19,310 nt of DNA from a virus: UHGV virus genome UHGV-0366180; one strand, 5' to 3'. The position numbers were made by a program, and so were the translations under genes. Positions 12,860 through 17,589 of this stretch are shown here, in pieces; the stretch's first letter is position 1; each line of letters starts with the position of its first letter. The notes beneath the pieces were generated by a model, which saw nothing but the letters and a program-made list of their open reading frames with translations, did no database searches and was not told where the DNA came from.

Positions 12860-13660
12860 TTAGTGCAGTTGGTCAGCAGACTCTTTTTCAGCCATAGCTG
12901 AGATTTGCTTTACAAAATCATCACCGAAGTTAATGCGTAGCTTCTCTTCAATGATTGAAGCACCAATATTCACCAAAACATCATTGATTGCTTGCATACT
13001 AACGCCACCAGTCATTTCCTCAATGAACTCAATACTCACACCCATCATCTGTGACAGTTGGATTAGTGCAACGATATTCATCATCGTAGAGATAGCTGGA
13101 ATCATCAGTGCAACTTTCACCTGAAGTGGTTCAATGTCAGCTACAGAGTCATTTTCAACAGCTTCTTCCAAAGACTCTTTAGTTTGCTGGATAATCTCCT
13201 TGATTCGTGGGTTTAGCTCTTCTACACCCCAATCAAGTTTTTCATATCGTGACAACTTCTCTTCCATTCGCTTCTCAAGAGCAGCCATAACAGCACTGGT
13301 TGATGAAATTAACAGGTCAATTAGCTCATCATTACCTGCGAGTAGTAGCAAGTCTTTTTCTTCAGTGGTCATGGCAATATAGTCATTTTTCTGCATCTCA
13401 TAAAAAATGAACTCTGCAAGAGCATCAACACCTACAACGATAGATGCTAAAGCAAGTGTTTTGTCGCAAAGCATCATGTTGACCTGTTCTGCAAAAGCAC
13501 TGTTATCAGACTTGTCTTCAGGCAAGTTATAGCTTGCAGGCATAAACTGTTCTGTGTAGTTATTACCACGAAGAATCATAGCCATGCTTTCTACGGCATT
13601 GATTAAGAATGCTTCATCAACACCTTTTTCTTCAAGCATCTTTTCTACATCGATATTCAT
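12860..13660 (-). CDS. Hypothetical strongly acidic protein (266 aa)
   Basis: Asp/Glu-rich throughout with predicted helical character; no motif I recognise; start ATG 13660..13658 lies 1 nt after the upstream stop. Confidence 0.5.
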   Translation of the reverse strand: MNIDVEKMLEEKGVDEAFLINAVESMAMILRGNNYTEQFMPASYNLPEDKSDNSAFAEQVNMMLCDKTLALASIVVGVDALAEFIFYEMQKNDYIAMTTEEKDLLLLAGNDELIDLLISSTSAVMAALEKRMEEKLSRYEKLDWGVEELNPRIKEIIQQTKESLEEAVENDSVADIEPLQVKVALMIPAISTMMNIVALIQLSQMMGVSIEFIEEMTGGVSMQAINDVLVNIGASIIEEKLRINFGDDFVKQISAMAEKESADQLH

Positions 13661-13661
13661 A

Positions 13662-14084
13662 TTATTTCTCTCTCAGTTGGTTAAGTTTCTTTCTAGAACA
13701 TTTTAAGTTTTCGGATGAAGAAAAGTCAAGTGTCTTTTCAGAACGTGGATAATAGTGCCTATCCCAAGAAGTTTCAACATCGTTAATCAGTGACGCTAGA
13801 TTACACAGGTCTGTACCACTTTGCAACCTCTTTTTAAGAGAATCTAGTAAAGCAACTGTGTCTTTAGCTTTACGTCTTGCTGTAGCAACATCTTTCATAT
13901 GCTCAAATACAGAGCATTTTAAGTCATCTTCATAGTTTTCAGACAACTCTATTTCATGTTGTATATCAACCATTCTCCTGTGATGGTGAGCATATTCCCG
14001 TTGAGCAGCAATGTCAAGTTCTTCCAACTTCTGCAAAGCTCTAACAAAGTCAGCTATGTCTGGGTGAACAAACATTTTCTGCAT
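13662..14084 (-). CDS. Hypothetical protein (140 aa), first gene of the minus-strand train
   Basis: ATG 14084..14082 with SD GAGG 6 nt upstream; faces the divergent intergenic region. Confidence 0.5.
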   Translation of the reverse strand: MQKMFVHPDIADFVRALQKLEELDIAAQREYAHHHRRMVDIQHEIELSENYEDDLKCSVFEHMKDVATARRKAKDTVALLDSLKKRLQSGTDLCNLASLINDVETSWDRHYYPRSEKTLDFSSSENLKCSRKKLNQLREK

Positions 14085-14341
14085 GTAAGCCTCTTTTAAG
14101 TAACTATTAAGTTTTAATCTTTTATCTTAACGTATTCTATACGTTATACTTTAAAGCTTTTTAAAAGCTATTAAATAATCTTTTAAGAGTTTTAAAGTAT
14201 CTGTATAGTTAAACTGTTAAGTAACCTTTTAAGTAAAAACCCACTTCGCAAAGATTAACACCTTGTCAAGCGCATTGTCAACTTGCTTTTTATAATTTTT
14301 TGCAGTAATGTATGAGGTTAATGATTTTAGAGGGAGTAAAA
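14085..14341. promoter_or_regulatory. Divergent AT-rich control region between the minus-strand train and the polymerase gene, with repeated motifs
   Basis: About 257 bp non-coding. TTAAGTAA at 14096-14103, 14217-14224 and 14229-14236; tandem TTGTCA at 14263-14268 and 14275-14280; TATAAT at 14291-14296; SD AGGGAG at 14331-14336. Confidence 0.45.
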
Positions 14342-17041
14342 ATGGAAAACGTAGATTTTAAAAACTTACATTTAGTTGGTGATACAGAAACTGATGGTTT
14401 ACTCCTTGAGTTCACTAAAGTGCACGTAATGGCTTTCGCAGACTATAAATCTGACGATGAAGAGCCACCTGTATGGGTCTTTACAGATGAGCCTATCCTC
14501 GGTCACAAGTACACTAAGTACATCAAGGGTGGCTTACGTGAAGGTATTGAGTTTGCGTTAAAGGCAAAACGTCTTTGCATTCATAATGGTCTAGGTTATG
14601 ACTGGTGGGTTTTCAATCACATTGCACCGGATTTATGGAACTTTGATAACCCAAAGTGTAAGCCGTGGAGTAATTTCTTTCAGGATTCTCTTATCCAGTC
14701 TCGTGTTCAGTGGATGGATAGACCAACTCCAAAGGGTTATAAAGGTGCTCATGGTTTGGCTGCATGGGGTGCTCGTGTTGGTGTTCGTAAGCCAGAGATT
14801 GAGCATTGGGGTGTGTGGAATGCAGAAATCTTCACTCGTGTTGTAGAAGATATCCGTATTAACGCCAAAACTAAACGGGCACTTGATAATGAGTATCTCA
14901 AGCTTAAGAAGTGTGGCATCGACACTTATGAAACCTACATGCGAGCTAAAGAAACATCTTTCTGGATGAGTCAACAAGCTATCAATGGTTGGAAAGCTGA
15001 TAAAGAGCTTATGGAGTTCCATGTAAAGGAACTTGACAAGTTGACTAATGAACTTGCTTCAGAAGTTGAACCGCATCTACCTCCAACTATTAAGACCAAA
15101 GGTAAAGTCACTGGAGAAGAGTTTGCAAAAGCTTGGAATGAGTATGTTGAAGCATTTGGTCATGCAGATGGACTGAAGAGAATCACCAAGTACCCTAAGA
15201 CAAAGTATCGTCAGCAGGTACGTAATGGTGAGATGCAAACATATGAAATCAAGCCATTTGGTAAGCCAACTACAAAGATTTTTAACATTGAAAAAAGGAA
15301 TTGCTATACACCAACCAACACTGTAACTGGTGAAGAGTACAAGGAAGGCTTTGTAGCAATGAAGGATGCTCGTGCAATTTGCAATGAGTTGAACGCAAAG
15401 ATTGGTAAGAAATGCAAAGACTGGAAGCCAGTAAAAACAGTCAAAACTGTGAAGTACTATAACAGCCACGTTGTTAACCACTTTGAACTTGAGTCAAGTC
15501 GCTACACAGGTTTGATTGATGCACCATATACACCAATTGAGTTTGAAGTTTCTCGTATGACTCAGGTAGCAGTTGTTAAAGACTACTTGAAATCAGTTGG
15601 TTGGATTCCAGATGACTGGAACTACAAGAAAGACTCTGATGGTCGCCCTGTCAAAGTTTGTCGTTTCAAAGACAATAAAAAGATGATTACAAAGCATCCT
15701 AAGTGGCAGGAAATGGTTGAGCGGTGTGGTTTGAGTTATGTTGAACACGAAGGCGTCCAGTACATTGAGCATAACTGGTCTGTGAAGAAGTACACAGATT
15801 TGCTTGAGCCTTGCTTAATCCGTACTTCACCAAAACTTACTGAATCATCTTACGATACGATTGAAGGTGAGCTTGGACAGAAGATTGCTAAATACTACAC
15901 TTTGATGCACCGACGCAGAACTATTGAGAACTCAAAGGATGATGAAAAAGGTTGGTTGAACCAGATTCGTCCTGATGGTCGCCTTAGTGCTGGTGCAATG
16001 GTGTTTGGTACTTCAACTGGACGTATGACACAGTATGGTATTGTAAACGTACCGTCTGGTGCTGCTGTCTATGGGGAACCAATGAGGGCAGTGTGGATTT
16101 GTGAGGAAGGTACTAACGTTGTCTCTGTAGACATGAACTCAGCCCAGCTAGTTCTTCTTTGTAACTTTATGGGTGATAAAGACTTCACCAAAGCGGTAAC
16201 GCAAGGTAAAGAAGAAATTGAGTTCATTCGTCAAGAAGATGGACGCTATTACTGTAAACACTTTGATGAGTACCTCAACCCAGAGATTGATAAGTACCTT
16301 CGCTATGACTCTGAGAATGACCTGTACGTTGTCTATTCAGGGACTGATGCACATACACTGAACAGTATTTACTTTAACTTGAACGATGAGCAGGACATCT
16401 TGACTTGTCGAGCTACTCAGGATGAGAATCTTCTTCATGAGATTAGCAAGGGTCGTAAGAAAGCTAAGAATGGTATCTATGCACTGCTGTTCGGTGCAGG
16501 TGATGAGAAGTTTGCTAAGACGATTAAAGCTGCAACTACTCAGGAAGGTGCGCTGACTAAACAGACTTACTTTATTCGTTTGCCTAAAATTAAAAAGCTG
16601 CTAGATGACTTGGAAGCTGACTACAAAGCAACTAAAAAGGCACTTGAAGAGGTGTTTGGTAAGACTGCTGCAATTTCTAAAGGGGGCTTTGTAAAGGTTG
16701 CTGGAGCTTGGTTGTGGTGTAAATCTCCACATAAGTTATTGAATTATTTGCTCATGGGTTCGGAAAGTCAGATTCAAAATGAGGCAATTAACCTTGCTTG
16801 TAGAAGAGTATGTGAAGAAGGATTGACAAAATTAAATGGACGAAAACCAGCAATCGGTGCTAGGCTTTTGCTGGCATACCACGATGAAAACAGTTGGGAA
16901 TGCCCAGAAAGTATGACTCAAGAAGTTAAAGCCATAACTGACTGGATGTATGGTCAGGCATCTAAGAATTTAGGTTTGAAGAGTGAGACGCTTGTAACTG
17001 GCACAGGTAAGGTTGGTAAGAGCTGGTATGAGGTACATTGA
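14342..17041 (+). CDS. DNA polymerase, family A (T7 gp5-like) with 3'-5' exonuclease domain, 899 aa
   Basis: Exo I VGDTETDGL; Exo II HNGLGYDWWVF (compare T7 HNGHKYD); pre-motif-A TSTGRMTQYGIVNVPS; motif A SVDMNSAQLVLL; motif B RKKAKNGIYALLFGAG; motif C YHDE. Start moved from the ORF-track 14312 to ATG 14342, which has SD AGGGAG 5 nt upstream. Confidence 0.9.
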   Translation: MENVDFKNLHLVGDTETDGLLLEFTKVHVMAFADYKSDDEEPPVWVFTDEPILGHKYTKYIKGGLREGIEFALKAKRLCIHNGLGYDWWVFNHIAPDLWNFDNPKCKPWSNFFQDSLIQSRVQWMDRPTPKGYKGAHGLAAWGARVGVRKPEIEHWGVWNAEIFTRVVEDIRINAKTKRALDNEYLKLKKCGIDTYETYMRAKETSFWMSQQAINGWKADKELMEFHVKELDKLTNELASEVEPHLPPTIKTKGKVTGEEFAKAWNEYVEAFGHADGLKRITKYPKTKYRQQVRNGEMQTYEIKPFGKPTTKIFNIEKRNCYTPTNTVTGEEYKEGFVAMKDARAICNELNAKIGKKCKDWKPVKTVKTVKYYNSHVVNHFELESSRYTGLIDAPYTPIEFEVSRMTQVAVVKDYLKSVGWIPDDWNYKKDSDGRPVKVCRFKDNKKMITKHPKWQEMVERCGLSYVEHEGVQYIEHNWSVKKYTDLLEPCLIRTSPKLTESSYDTIEGELGQKIAKYYTLMHRRRTIENSKDDEKGWLNQIRPDGRLSAGAMVFGTSTGRMTQYGIVNVPSGAAVYGEPMRAVWICEEGTNVVSVDMNSAQLVLLCNFMGDKDFTKAVTQGKEEIEFIRQEDGRYYCKHFDEYLNPEIDKYLRYDSENDLYVVYSGTDAHTLNSIYFNLNDEQDILTCRATQDENLLHEISKGRKKAKNGIYALLFGAGDEKFAKTIKAATTQEGALTKQTYFIRLPKIKKLLDDLEADYKATKKALEEVFGKTAAISKGGFVKVAGAWLWCKSPHKLLNYLLMGSESQIQNEAINLACRRVCEEGLTKLNGRKPAIGARLLLAYHDENSWECPESMTQEVKAITDWMYGQASKNLGLKSETLVTGTGKVGKSWYEVH

Positions 17042-17051
17042 TGGTGTTGAA

Positions 17052-17564
17052 ATGATTACAGAAATTCGTCTTAAGGAGCTATTGGACTATGACCCCGAAA
17101 CAGGGGTCTTTACTTGGAAGTTTAGAGAAGGTAATGCAAACTTTAACTCTAGATTTGGAGGTAAGAGGGCTGGAAACTACAGAACAAATACTGATGGACA
17201 CAAGTCAGTTCAGTTGTTGATTGATGGAAGGAGTTACCAAGCAAATCGTTTAGTTATCTTGTATATGGATGGATATCTGCCTGATAAAACCTTACAGGTT
17301 GACCATCAGAATGGGGACGGTTGGGACAATAGGTACTTGAATTTAAGGGTTTGTACAGCTTCACAAAACTCTTGCAATCGGTCAAGAAAGTCTCCATCTG
17401 GGTTGCCAAAAGGTGTACAGAAGATAAGTAAAAGGTTTCGAGCAATGATACGTTTACAAGGTAAAAACTATCATCTTGGTATGTTTGACACACCTGAAGA
17501 AGCCCATAAAGCTTACTGTGAAGCTGCTATTAAACTCCACGGAGAGTTTGCAAAACTAAGTTGA
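17052..17564 (+). CDS. HNH endonuclease with C-terminal AP2-type domain (copy B)
   Basis: HNH motif VDHQNGDGWDNRYLNLRVCTASQN; AP2-like GVQKISKRFRAMIRLQGKNYHLGMFDTPEEAHKAY; shares the YDPETGVFTW block with copy A. An alternative start at ATG 17028 is possible. Confidence 0.75.
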   Translation: MITEIRLKELLDYDPETGVFTWKFREGNANFNSRFGGKRAGNYRTNTDGHKSVQLLIDGRSYQANRLVILYMDGYLPDKTLQVDHQNGDGWDNRYLNLRVCTASQNSCNRSRKSPSGLPKGVQKISKRFRAMIRLQGKNYHLGMFDTPEEAHKAYCEAAIKLHGEFAKLS

Positions 17565-17589
17565 CAAGGTGCTCAGGGAAGAGTACCTT
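17561..17589 (+). promoter_or_regulatory. Weak candidate sigma70 promoter overlapping the HNH stop
   Basis: Perfect -35 TTGACA at 17561-17566; the only -10-like hexamer at 17-nt spacing is TACCTT (17584-17589); TATACT sits at a 22-nt spacing, too far. Confidence 0.25.

Follow-up and report, generated by a model that had tools for sequence, protein, structure and literature searches.

Positions 14,085 to 14,341 of UHGV virus genome UHGV-0366180, a stretch of 19,310 nucleotides referred to here as the window, form the gap between a minus-strand coding sequence (CDS, 13662-14084) and the DNA polymerase gene, which runs rightward from 14342. These 257 bp (79% A+T) are probably a compact early control region of the Felix O1 type, in which two promoters for the host sigma70 RNA polymerase stand back to back and the leftward one is followed by a long conserved leader. 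A first-pass annotation of the window had described the gap as a divergent control region between two gene trains, and the comparisons presented here support that description. The window was assigned to Felixounavirus, being 97-99.7% identical to Felixounavirus genomes including Felix O1; 260 phage records matched it, nearly all of them Felixounavirus, with 95-99% identity across positions 13000-16000, and the 301 bp around the gap were 99.7% identical to Felix O1 AF320576 63453-63753. By alignment, the gap is the intergenic region between Felix O1 genes 96 and 97, the early control region.

The Felix O1 genome paper takes early transcription to begin at divergent promoters lying between genes 96 and 97 but located no obvious promoter there (Whichard 2010, PMC3185647), and it describes the start and timing of transcription as not understood (PMC3185647). 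Timing by reverse transcription PCR placed transcription of open reading frames (ORFs) 96 and 97 within the first 5 min, and neither an RNA polymerase nor any recognised sigma-modifying protein is encoded by the phage (PMC3185647). With both ORFs on this early and an RNA polymerase of the phage unreported, it must be the host enzyme that initiates in the gap. The first-pass annotation had also suggested promoters dependent on a phage polymerase, and this finds no support in the same report, which describes no such enzyme for the family (PMC3185647).

The main comparison genome was vB_EcoM_ASO1A (GenBank MZ726791; L032 in our set of loci), which is complete (87.6 kb) and 97.5% identical. Phylogenetic footprinting covered 25 distinct IMG/VR loci and 4 GenBank loci, including Suspvirus and Mooglevirus relatives, and gave a mean identity of 0.82 for the intergenic region compared with 0.40-0.64 for third codon positions in the genes on either side. 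Sigma70 sites were scored with a position weight matrix (PWM) whose hexamer frequencies follow published compilations, with both window strands scanned (38.6 kb), and expected motif counts were obtained from dinucleotide-preserving shuffles.

On the minus strand the gap holds what reads as a near-canonical sigma70 promoter, firing away from the polymerase and composed of the following parts (N followed by a number denotes that many bases):

14276..14281, minus strand: -35 hexamer TTGACA, 6/6 consensus and invariant in relatives, the second TTGTCA of the first-pass annotation
14252..14260, minus strand: extended -10 element TG-t-TAATCT, from the PWM scan and the sequence, TAGTCT in relatives
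14264..14269, minus strand: proximal TTGACA within the promoter spacer, the hexamer invariant
14282..14303, minus strand: UP-like A-tract GCAAAAAATTATAAAAAGCAAG upstream of the -35, holding the TATAAT of the first-pass annotation on the other strand

This promoter scored 12.9 bits, which made it the seventh best site on the two window strands (99.996th percentile), with a -35 to -10 spacer of 18 nt and with A2 and T6 present in the -10 TAATCT. Both TTGACA hexamers and AAAAGCAAG were invariant in the footprint, and the 4-5 nt between the hexamers varied freely; AAAAAGCAAG of the A-tract was likewise invariant and its distal part variable, and TAATCT alternated with TAGTCT among relatives, TA...T being kept. 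The context TAAAAAG-N3-TTGACA was found at about 10 other predicted promoters of ASO1A. The MZ726791 record already annotates, in silico, a leftward promoter on the same TTGACA (TTGACA-N16-GTTAAT), whereas conservation among relatives led us to set the -10 at N18 (TGtTAATCT).

An UP element and an extended -10 are combined in strong sigma70 promoters of the rrnB P1 type and in the early promoters of T5 and T7. The leftward promoter resembles them in its perfect TTGACA, in an A-tract at about -40 to -57 and in the TGn before its -10, and it is predicted to be used, as they are, by host RNA polymerase immediately after infection. It differs from them in matching only 3/6 positions of the -10 consensus and in carrying a second perfect TTGACA 12 bp downstream in the spacer, without variation across three genera and two loci.

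The first-pass annotation had read the same letters on the plus strand, as a tandem TTGTCA ahead of a TATAAT hexamer. All three hexamers were confirmed (TTGTCA at 14263-14268 and 14275-14280, TATAAT at 14291-14296), as were the spacers of 22 and 10 nt from the TTGTCA copies to TATAAT, which are wrong for sigma70 as had been claimed. Their interpretation as a mis-spaced promoter for the polymerase was rejected. On the minus strand the repeat reads TTGACAA-tgcgc-TTGACAA and, together with the A-tract, is explained as the UP element and -35 of the leftward promoter; TATAAT reads as the reverse complement of part of that A-tract and is lost in Suspvirus and Mooglevirus, GTGTCG, GAAACT, GAAGAT or CATAAA taking its place in relatives which keep all the surroundings.

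Exact TTGACAA-N5-TTGACAA occurred once in the window and twice in the whole of ASO1A, at its two divergent junctions only, and both ASO1A copies were directed into operons transcribed on the plus strand of the record. The other junction, junction B, lies between genes 043 and 044 (L032:24048-24125 and 23963-24211). A 41-nt cassette, AAAAAG-N2-3-GTTGACAA-N4-CTTGACAAGGTGT, was common to both, with ACTTAAAAGGTT 23-24 nt beyond it in each case; local alignment of one junction to the other scored 43 compared with 21.5 +/- 3.1 for shuffled sequence, and 0/1000 shuffles reached 43. At junction B the TTGACA boxes were invariant, the spacer was variable, TAnnnT lay 17 nt from the distal hexamer and the leader was almost 100% conserved across genera, while a back-to-back TTGACT-N17-TACCAT faced the opposite way. 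A third, looser copy was present at ASO1A 13302 (L032:13290-13380), reading TTGACAATACCCCTTGACAT and then TAACTT at 17 nt. The usable -10 distance belonged to the distal hexamer in all three copies; a second promoter driven from the proximal TTGACA was rejected, as no -10 lay at 15-19 nt from it at either junction. TTGnCAA is itself palindromic, so the TTGACAA pair could act as an operator. A 99-aa Cro/C1-type helix-turn-helix (HTH) protein is encoded in the polymerase-side operon of the family, outside the window (ASO1A_083 homologue), and its action on the conserved second TTGACAA is only a hypothesis. The second TTGACAA and the boxes described below are candidate sites for a regulator that may act in both directions.

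Near junction B, two small minus-strand ORFs with good Shine-Dalgarno sequences (starts near 23818 and 23962) are apparently unannotated in the ASO1A record. Another record, L045 (IMG/VR 2974574300_000001, 84,419 bp), has its first base within the junction B leader, just past the predicted promoter and 118 nt ahead of the gene 044 homologue; this base could be a physical terminus or merely an assembly breakpoint.

The remark of the first-pass annotation that the polymerase lacks a canonical promoter was correct and was already in the literature (PMC3185647). The best plus-strand sites scored 6-7.7 bits compared with 12-15 bits for good sites elsewhere in the window, and by PWM neither the gap nor the adjoining 500 bp on its left gave a plus-strand site above 7.7 bits. 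On the polymerase side the features are:

14283-14288 / 14306-14311, plus strand: weak candidate polymerase promoter, the best conserved one, TTGCTT-N17-TAATGT, PWM 7.4 bits, 6/12 consensus positions
14330..14344, plus strand: polymerase ribosome binding site GAGGGAG and ATG 14342, conserved in all relatives

The predicted start from TTGCTT-N17-TAATGT falls near 14318 and would give a 24-nt leader. TTGCTT was invariant among relatives, the 17-18 nt spacer (which holds TATAAT) diverged, and the -10 appeared as TAATGT, TAAGGT, TAGGGT or TAGTGT with TA..GT kept. TTGCTT adjoins the leftward -35 at a distance of 1 bp, back to back, in the manner of the promoter pair at junction B. Kolesnikvirus relatives have a clear TTGACT-N17-TAATAT, or else an extended -10, at the corresponding position, ahead of an inserted HNH gene and the polymerase. 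Two other weak plus-strand candidates were found, TTATCT-N17-TATACT (14122/14145) and TTTAAG-N16-TATAGT (14182/14204), the latter near the rightward promoter annotated in MZ726791 (TTAAGA-N15-TATAGT). We favour TTGCTT-N17-TAATGT over these two as the site which may serve the polymerase, with a confidence that stops a little short of even. The locus is the same as the Felix O1 96-97 region (PMC3185647) and that of MZ726791, and our reading departs from these in the leftward -10 at N18 and in the polymerase promoter preferred.

Public records differ on the start of the polymerase, giving either 906 aa (ATG 14321) or 899 aa (ATG 14342). The in-frame ATGs at 14312 and 14321 were unconserved, and only 14342, with its GAGGGAG Shine-Dalgarno sequence, was kept in Suspvirus and Mooglevirus.

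The polymerase gene (window 14342-17041) is annotated or matched in two pieces in Meda, PMBT20, REP10 and JLBYU28 (H31, H33-H35, L002), in one case with an endonuclease VII gene, which suggests an intervening element that the window lacks. In Kolesnikvirus-type loci an HNH/homing-endonuclease-like ORF lies between the divergent promoters and the polymerase (L030:2468-2944, L068:1036-1514). Downstream of the polymerase, after an HNH gene, the window carries TTGACAAGGTG...-N17-TACCTT (17561-17589, plus strand), which would be an internal promoter of the polymerase-side operon; the word TTGACAAGGTG is common to this site and to the proximal box of both junction cassettes.

The leftward leader is marked by short repeated boxes. 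The first-pass annotation had reported three copies of TTAAGTAA, and these are located as it stated (14096-14103, 14217-14224 and 14229-14236) and are the only copies in the window. Three copies compare with 1.43 expected, and 35/200 shuffles reached that number; some 8-mer reached at least 3 copies in 11% of dinucleotide-preserving shuffles of the 257 bp. ASO1A contains 8 copies, 4 of them noncoding (3 in this gap and 1 at the other divergent junction), and the check proposed in the first-pass annotation, a search for the word upstream of other genes, therefore fails for this exact word. We rejected TTAAGTAA as a functional unit, as it was not significant, not conserved and not ahead of other genes. 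The idea of repeated boxes held for the generalised form CTNTWAAG (CUUWANAG in leftward RNA), which was both non-random and conserved, and of which the TTAAGTAA boxes are, as we read them, fragments: a wider, strand-polar motif. The features concerned are:

14214..14233, minus strand: tandem boxes CTGTTAAG at 14214 and CTTTTAAG at 14226, 12 bp apart, the tandem TTAAGTAA boxes of the first-pass annotation
14093..14111, minus strand: box pair CTTTTAAG at 14093 and CTATTAAG at 14104, 11 bp apart, by the ribosome binding site and containing TTAAGTAA box 1
14090..14094, minus strand: Shine-Dalgarno sequence AGAGG of the leftward gene, CCTCT being invariant in relatives, overlapped by the box at 14093-14100

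CTNTWAAG was defined after the gap had been viewed, and the counts for other regions come from sequence outside that definition. The plus strand of the gap contained 6 copies (14093, 14104, 14149, 14180, 14214 and 14226) compared with 0.20 expected and a maximum of 3 in 5000 shuffles. Both strands of the whole window contained 28 (9.0 +/- 3.1 expected), all ASO1A intergenic DNA 57 (8.0 +/- 3.0 expected, about 7-fold), and a 1.6-kb gene-free region at ASO1A 14666-16311 alone 28 (2.2 +/- 1.5 expected). Noncoding boxes were oriented with local transcription in a ratio of 43:8 and coding ones 41:39, a sense bias which depends partly on where the strand switch inside the 1.6-kb region is placed, this having been done by eye; outside the gap and the 1.6-kb region the noncoding ratio was 13:5.

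At five of the six box positions CTNTWAAG was kept in most relatives while the TTAAGTAA octamer changed (to TAAAGGGA at 14217). The box at 14104 read CTATTAAG only in the window and L021, CTATTAAA in Suspvirus and CTATAAAG in Mooglevirus-type relatives, and two more losses of the full pattern were seen, in L021 at 14093 (CTTTATAG) and in L065 at 14214. In the leftward transcript as predicted, the tandem pair reads CUUAAAAG...CUUAACAG and spans about +13 to +32, and a box pair just after the leftward promoter was also found in the Kolesnikvirus loci L030 and L068, though their DNA is unalignable. L030, with a polymerase 62% identical, had four plus-strand boxes in two pairs in the homologous gap (9 matches overall compared with 1.9 expected). 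Erwinia phage Ep030 (Kolesnikvirus) had pairs at 825/837 and 892/903 (10 matches compared with 1.9 expected), the first of them within about +9 to +27 of the start predicted from its leftward promoter TTGACA-N17-TACATT. At junction B and at the 13302 promoter, boxes 11-14 nt apart lay just past the predicted start, with a box at about +13 in the former case and CTAAAAGG, CTTAAAAG and CTTTATAG spaced by 11-12 nt in the latter.

The 1.6-kb region (L032:14666-16311) lies between convergent operons and is packed with CTNTWAAG, TGTTAAG and TTGTTAG units with periods of 10-12 bp, as in the ten AACTGTTAAG-like units at ASO1A 15557-15659; the orientation of the units flips near 15.1 kb. The region had no Rfam match, and its arrays could bind a protein, with packaging, genome termini or replication as examples of a role. 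No description of these motifs was found in the searched literature, and CTNTWAAG is apparently an undescribed, real and conserved 8-base signal. It is possible, though we would call it no better than a tentative proposal, that CTNTWAAG is a new strand-polar cis-element of the Ounavirinae, with pairs, arrays, factor and operator taken jointly. On this joint proposal, pairs at 11-12 nt would mark the first ~35 nt of early transcripts from the tandem-TTGACAA cassette, and arrays of ~30 copies would fill the 1.6-kb gene-free region. A phage or host factor would time early transcription (by shut-off or antitermination) or couple it to replication initiation at the palindrome, and the second TTGACAA would be the operator, for example for the Cro-like HTH protein, switching both junctions together.

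The palindrome occupies the middle of the leader:

14122..14224, strand not assigned: imperfect AT-rich palindrome of ~100 bp with its centre near 14173, inverted repeats I1 and I23
14128..14146, strand not assigned: inner perfect hairpin TAACGTAT-TCT-ATACGTTA, kept by compensatory changes

It includes the boxes at 14149-14156 and 14180-14187, with TTAAGTAA box 2 as its right outer arm, and gave fold z-scores of -2.4 and -2.7. Across nine distinct relatives, 88.8% of cells were paired compared with 43-56% when partners were slid, and 4 pairs were changed on both sides; the outer helix passes from CTTAAC/GTTAAG to CTTTAC/GTAAAG to CTTTAT/ATAAAG, and the inner hairpin co-varies. The interior was nearly invariant, which argues for sequence-specific recognition besides structure. 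At lengths of both 100 and 150 bp, nowhere in the ASO1A genome was the helix less stable than in the counterpart of 14091-14240 (GC 18-21%, over 4 standard deviations away from the mean). Kolesnikvirus relatives lack the palindrome and keep the boxes. A search of Rfam 15 gave no match for the whole window at gathering scores and nothing notable for 13900-14500 at E<=1, where one sub-threshold snoRNA match (E=0.42) fell within coding sequence. A plus-strand promoter to the left of the palindrome, which would place the hairpin in the polymerase transcript, was sought in 13600-14120 and none scored better than 6 bits. The strand of the hairpin had also been judged from G.T and A.C mismatches (43 and 2), and this count was set aside as biased because the structure had been derived from the plus strand.

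From this anatomy, conservation and enrichment we infer the following arrangement of start sites, factor binding and function. Leftward transcription would start near 14245 and run into the genes for the gp97-like protein, deoxynucleoside monophosphate kinase and primase/helicase, the second TTGACA in the spacer being a possible regulator site, and the polymerase would be driven by the weak TTGCTT-N17-TAATGT from a start near 14318. The leftward leader of ~160 nt would carry six same-strand boxes, one pair after the start and one at the ribosome binding site with the palindrome between them. The boxes may be sites for a factor acting on DNA or on nascent RNA and modulating early expression, and the palindrome with its unstable DNA may be a leader hairpin, an unwinding element or both.

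Several points weigh against this arrangement, one of them the placement by eye of the strand switch given above. The leftward -10 TAATCT fails a stricter rule of at least 4/6 consensus positions, and a consensus scan did not list the promoter. The polymerase promoter matches only 6/12, and the two rival weak candidates score alike and are also conserved. The P value for the boxes in the gap is optimistic, since the pattern was derived from the gap. The plus-strand RNA folds better than the leftward leader in 5/9 relatives and equally well in Mooglevirus, a misfit to a simple leftward-leader hairpin. No transcriptome or transcription start site study of the Felix O1 family, and with it no mapped start, was found in the searched literature.

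In the T7 primary origin and in T4 ori(uvsY) and ori(34) a promoter is followed by an AT-rich unwinding region, in T4 with an R-loop. The gap resembles these origins in that a promoter is directed into the DNA of lowest stability in the genome, amid T7-like polymerase and primase-helicase genes, and it differs in the predicted use of a host sigma70 promoter and in conserving sequence, not just composition. A transcription-activated replication origin, in which the leftward promoter fires into the palindrome as unwinding element and the boxes are initiator or primosome sites, would be compatible with the promoters described here. The T7-like replisome of Felix O1 (PMC3185647), the location at the point where strand and GC skew switch, with the polymerase block on one side and the primase/helicase block on the other, purifying selection stronger than promoters need and the compensatory changes in the palindrome all favour it. 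GC skew in itself was uninformative, as it follows gene orientation and is equally inverted at both junctions. No origin has been mapped in the family, the Kolesnikvirus relatives keep boxes without a palindrome, and an unwinding element needs AT-richness, not a near-invariant sequence. Helix stability at its lowest, in a position flanked by the polymerase and primase-helicase genes of a T7-like replisome, makes an origin a serious and non-exclusive alternative, one that we consider rather unlikely.

RNase III hairpins lie behind T7 early promoters, and the T7 gene 10 leader combines an AU-rich enhancer with a Shine-Dalgarno sequence. An element acting in the leader RNA was weighed, with CUUWANAG and the hairpin as a nut-like antitermination or processivity signal, as an RNase III processing or stabilising hairpin, or as an AU-rich translational enhancer by the ribosome binding site, and we hold it to be unlikely to the same degree as an origin. 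It would account for noncoding boxes following transcription where coding ones do not, for the placing of the first pair no further than ~35 nt into three predicted early transcripts and the homologous one in Kolesnikvirus, and for read-through of the many intrinsic terminators in the early operons, which is otherwise unexplained. The box at 14093, overlapping the Shine-Dalgarno sequence, resembles the gene 10 arrangement. Like lambda nut and rrn boxA, the boxes are short sense-strand motifs rich in CUUUAA/CUUAAA, soon after early promoters of operons with internal terminators; unlike them they come in multiple copies at 11-12 nt, with the GCUC core absent or unconserved. A boxA/nut assignment (GCUCUUUA(ACAA) core with boxB) was rejected, as the bases before the boxes vary (CTC, GTC, CCC and GAC at 14188-14190), no conserved or boxB-like stem-loop follows, and there was no Rfam match. 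The arrays with 10-12 bp phasing in gene-free DNA look more like a DNA-protein array than an RNA signal, and in most relatives it is the opposite strand that gives the more stable hairpin.

The model of the first-pass annotation took the TTGTCA repeats and TTAAGTAA as activator or phage-factor sites or phage-polymerase signals, with TATAAT 14291 as promoter and one shared site for both directions. We regard it as improbable. There is indeed no strong plus-strand sigma70 promoter; the proximal TTGACAA is conserved despite lying in a promoter spacer, TTGnCAA-N5-TTGnCAA is also a pseudo-palindrome, and the family has the 99-aa HTH protein. Against these stand the absence of a reported phage RNA polymerase in Felix O1 (PMC3185647), the replacement of TATAAT in relatives, and the unconserved TTAAGTAA, not found ahead of other genes. 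The repeat with its A-tract also fits a leftward sigma70 promoter with UP element, a combination recurring elsewhere in the genome. That the gap holds nothing beyond promoters, its boxes and palindrome being low-complexity AT-rich spacer from duplication and mutation bias, as its 79% A+T, the 8-mers found three times in 11% of shuffles and the many weak repeats listed by the repeat finder might suggest, is already disfavoured and very improbable given conservation that greatly exceeds synonymous sites, 6 boxes where shuffles keeping the local dinucleotide content predict 0.2, motif retention at homologous places in unalignable relatives and compensatory substitutions in the palindrome.

Other known signals were compared with the gap and rejected. 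The Pho box bound by PhoB consists of two TGTCA-containing direct repeats whose period is 11 bp, set 10 bp ahead of the -10, an arrangement which TTGTCAA-N5-TTGTCAA on the plus strand resembles, ending 9-10 bp before TATAAT; its period is 12 bp and not 11, TATAAT is lost in Suspvirus and Mooglevirus, and the opposite-strand promoter explains the element. A T4 middle promoter has a TGCTT-containing MotA box centred at -30 and 11-13 bp from the -10, and the distances here are wrong for it: TGCTT at 14284-14288 stands 2 nt before TATAAT and 17 nt before TAATGT; MotA/AsiA homologues were not searched. The T4 late promoter TATAAATA is absent from 14085-14341, and a T4-late-like TATAAATA at ASO1A junction B was not conserved. 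At 14201-14216 the sequence is CTGT-N8-ACTG and not the CTGT-N8-ACAG of a LexA box, with a direct CTGT...CTGT repeat in relatives.

Phages of the Felix O1 type are widely used in Salmonella typing, biocontrol and therapy. The analysis supplies testable coordinates for a leftward host-type promoter, a back-to-back weak polymerase promoter, a two-junction cassette, a polar 8-mer and a palindrome, and the last two are good candidates for the regulatory or origin signals that have been missing. Three features appear to be new by the literature searched: the paralogous -35 cassette, tandem and present at each junction; the CTNTWAAG family, which forms pairs close to predicted starts as well as large arrays; and the palindrome, kept by compensatory changes within the genome's least stable DNA. 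If the boxes or the second TTGACAA do bind a phage factor, the early-to-middle switch of the whole subfamily would be identified; if no phage factor binds, the gap would be an ordinary sigma70 control region with a structured leader.

The leftward gene is as follows:

13662..14084, minus strand: gp97-like protein of 140 aa, first gene of the leftward early operon, taken from the ORF list and hypothetical in relatives

The protein is basic, belongs to phrog_4039 (a PHROG without assigned function) and had no Pfam match; identity was 43-47% in Kolesnikvirus and 43-75% across the Ounavirinae. Its model was all-helical, with a long helical hairpin and two further helices (predicted local distance difference test score, pLDDT, 72.5). 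A known regulator was rejected as its identity, on the lack of a Pfam match, the function-less PHROG and fold matches limited to generic helical hairpins. Its gene comes first after the conserved leader, which makes the protein a candidate autoregulator. Two strong sigma70-like sites in the sense direction were observed inside its CDS on the minus strand: TTGACT-N18-TAAAAT at window 13700-13729, and TTGACA-N17-TATGCT (13.3 bits) at window 13989-14017, the latter sitting in a 13-nt near-repeat of 14272-14284 (GCAATGTCAAGTT / GCATTGTCAACTT).

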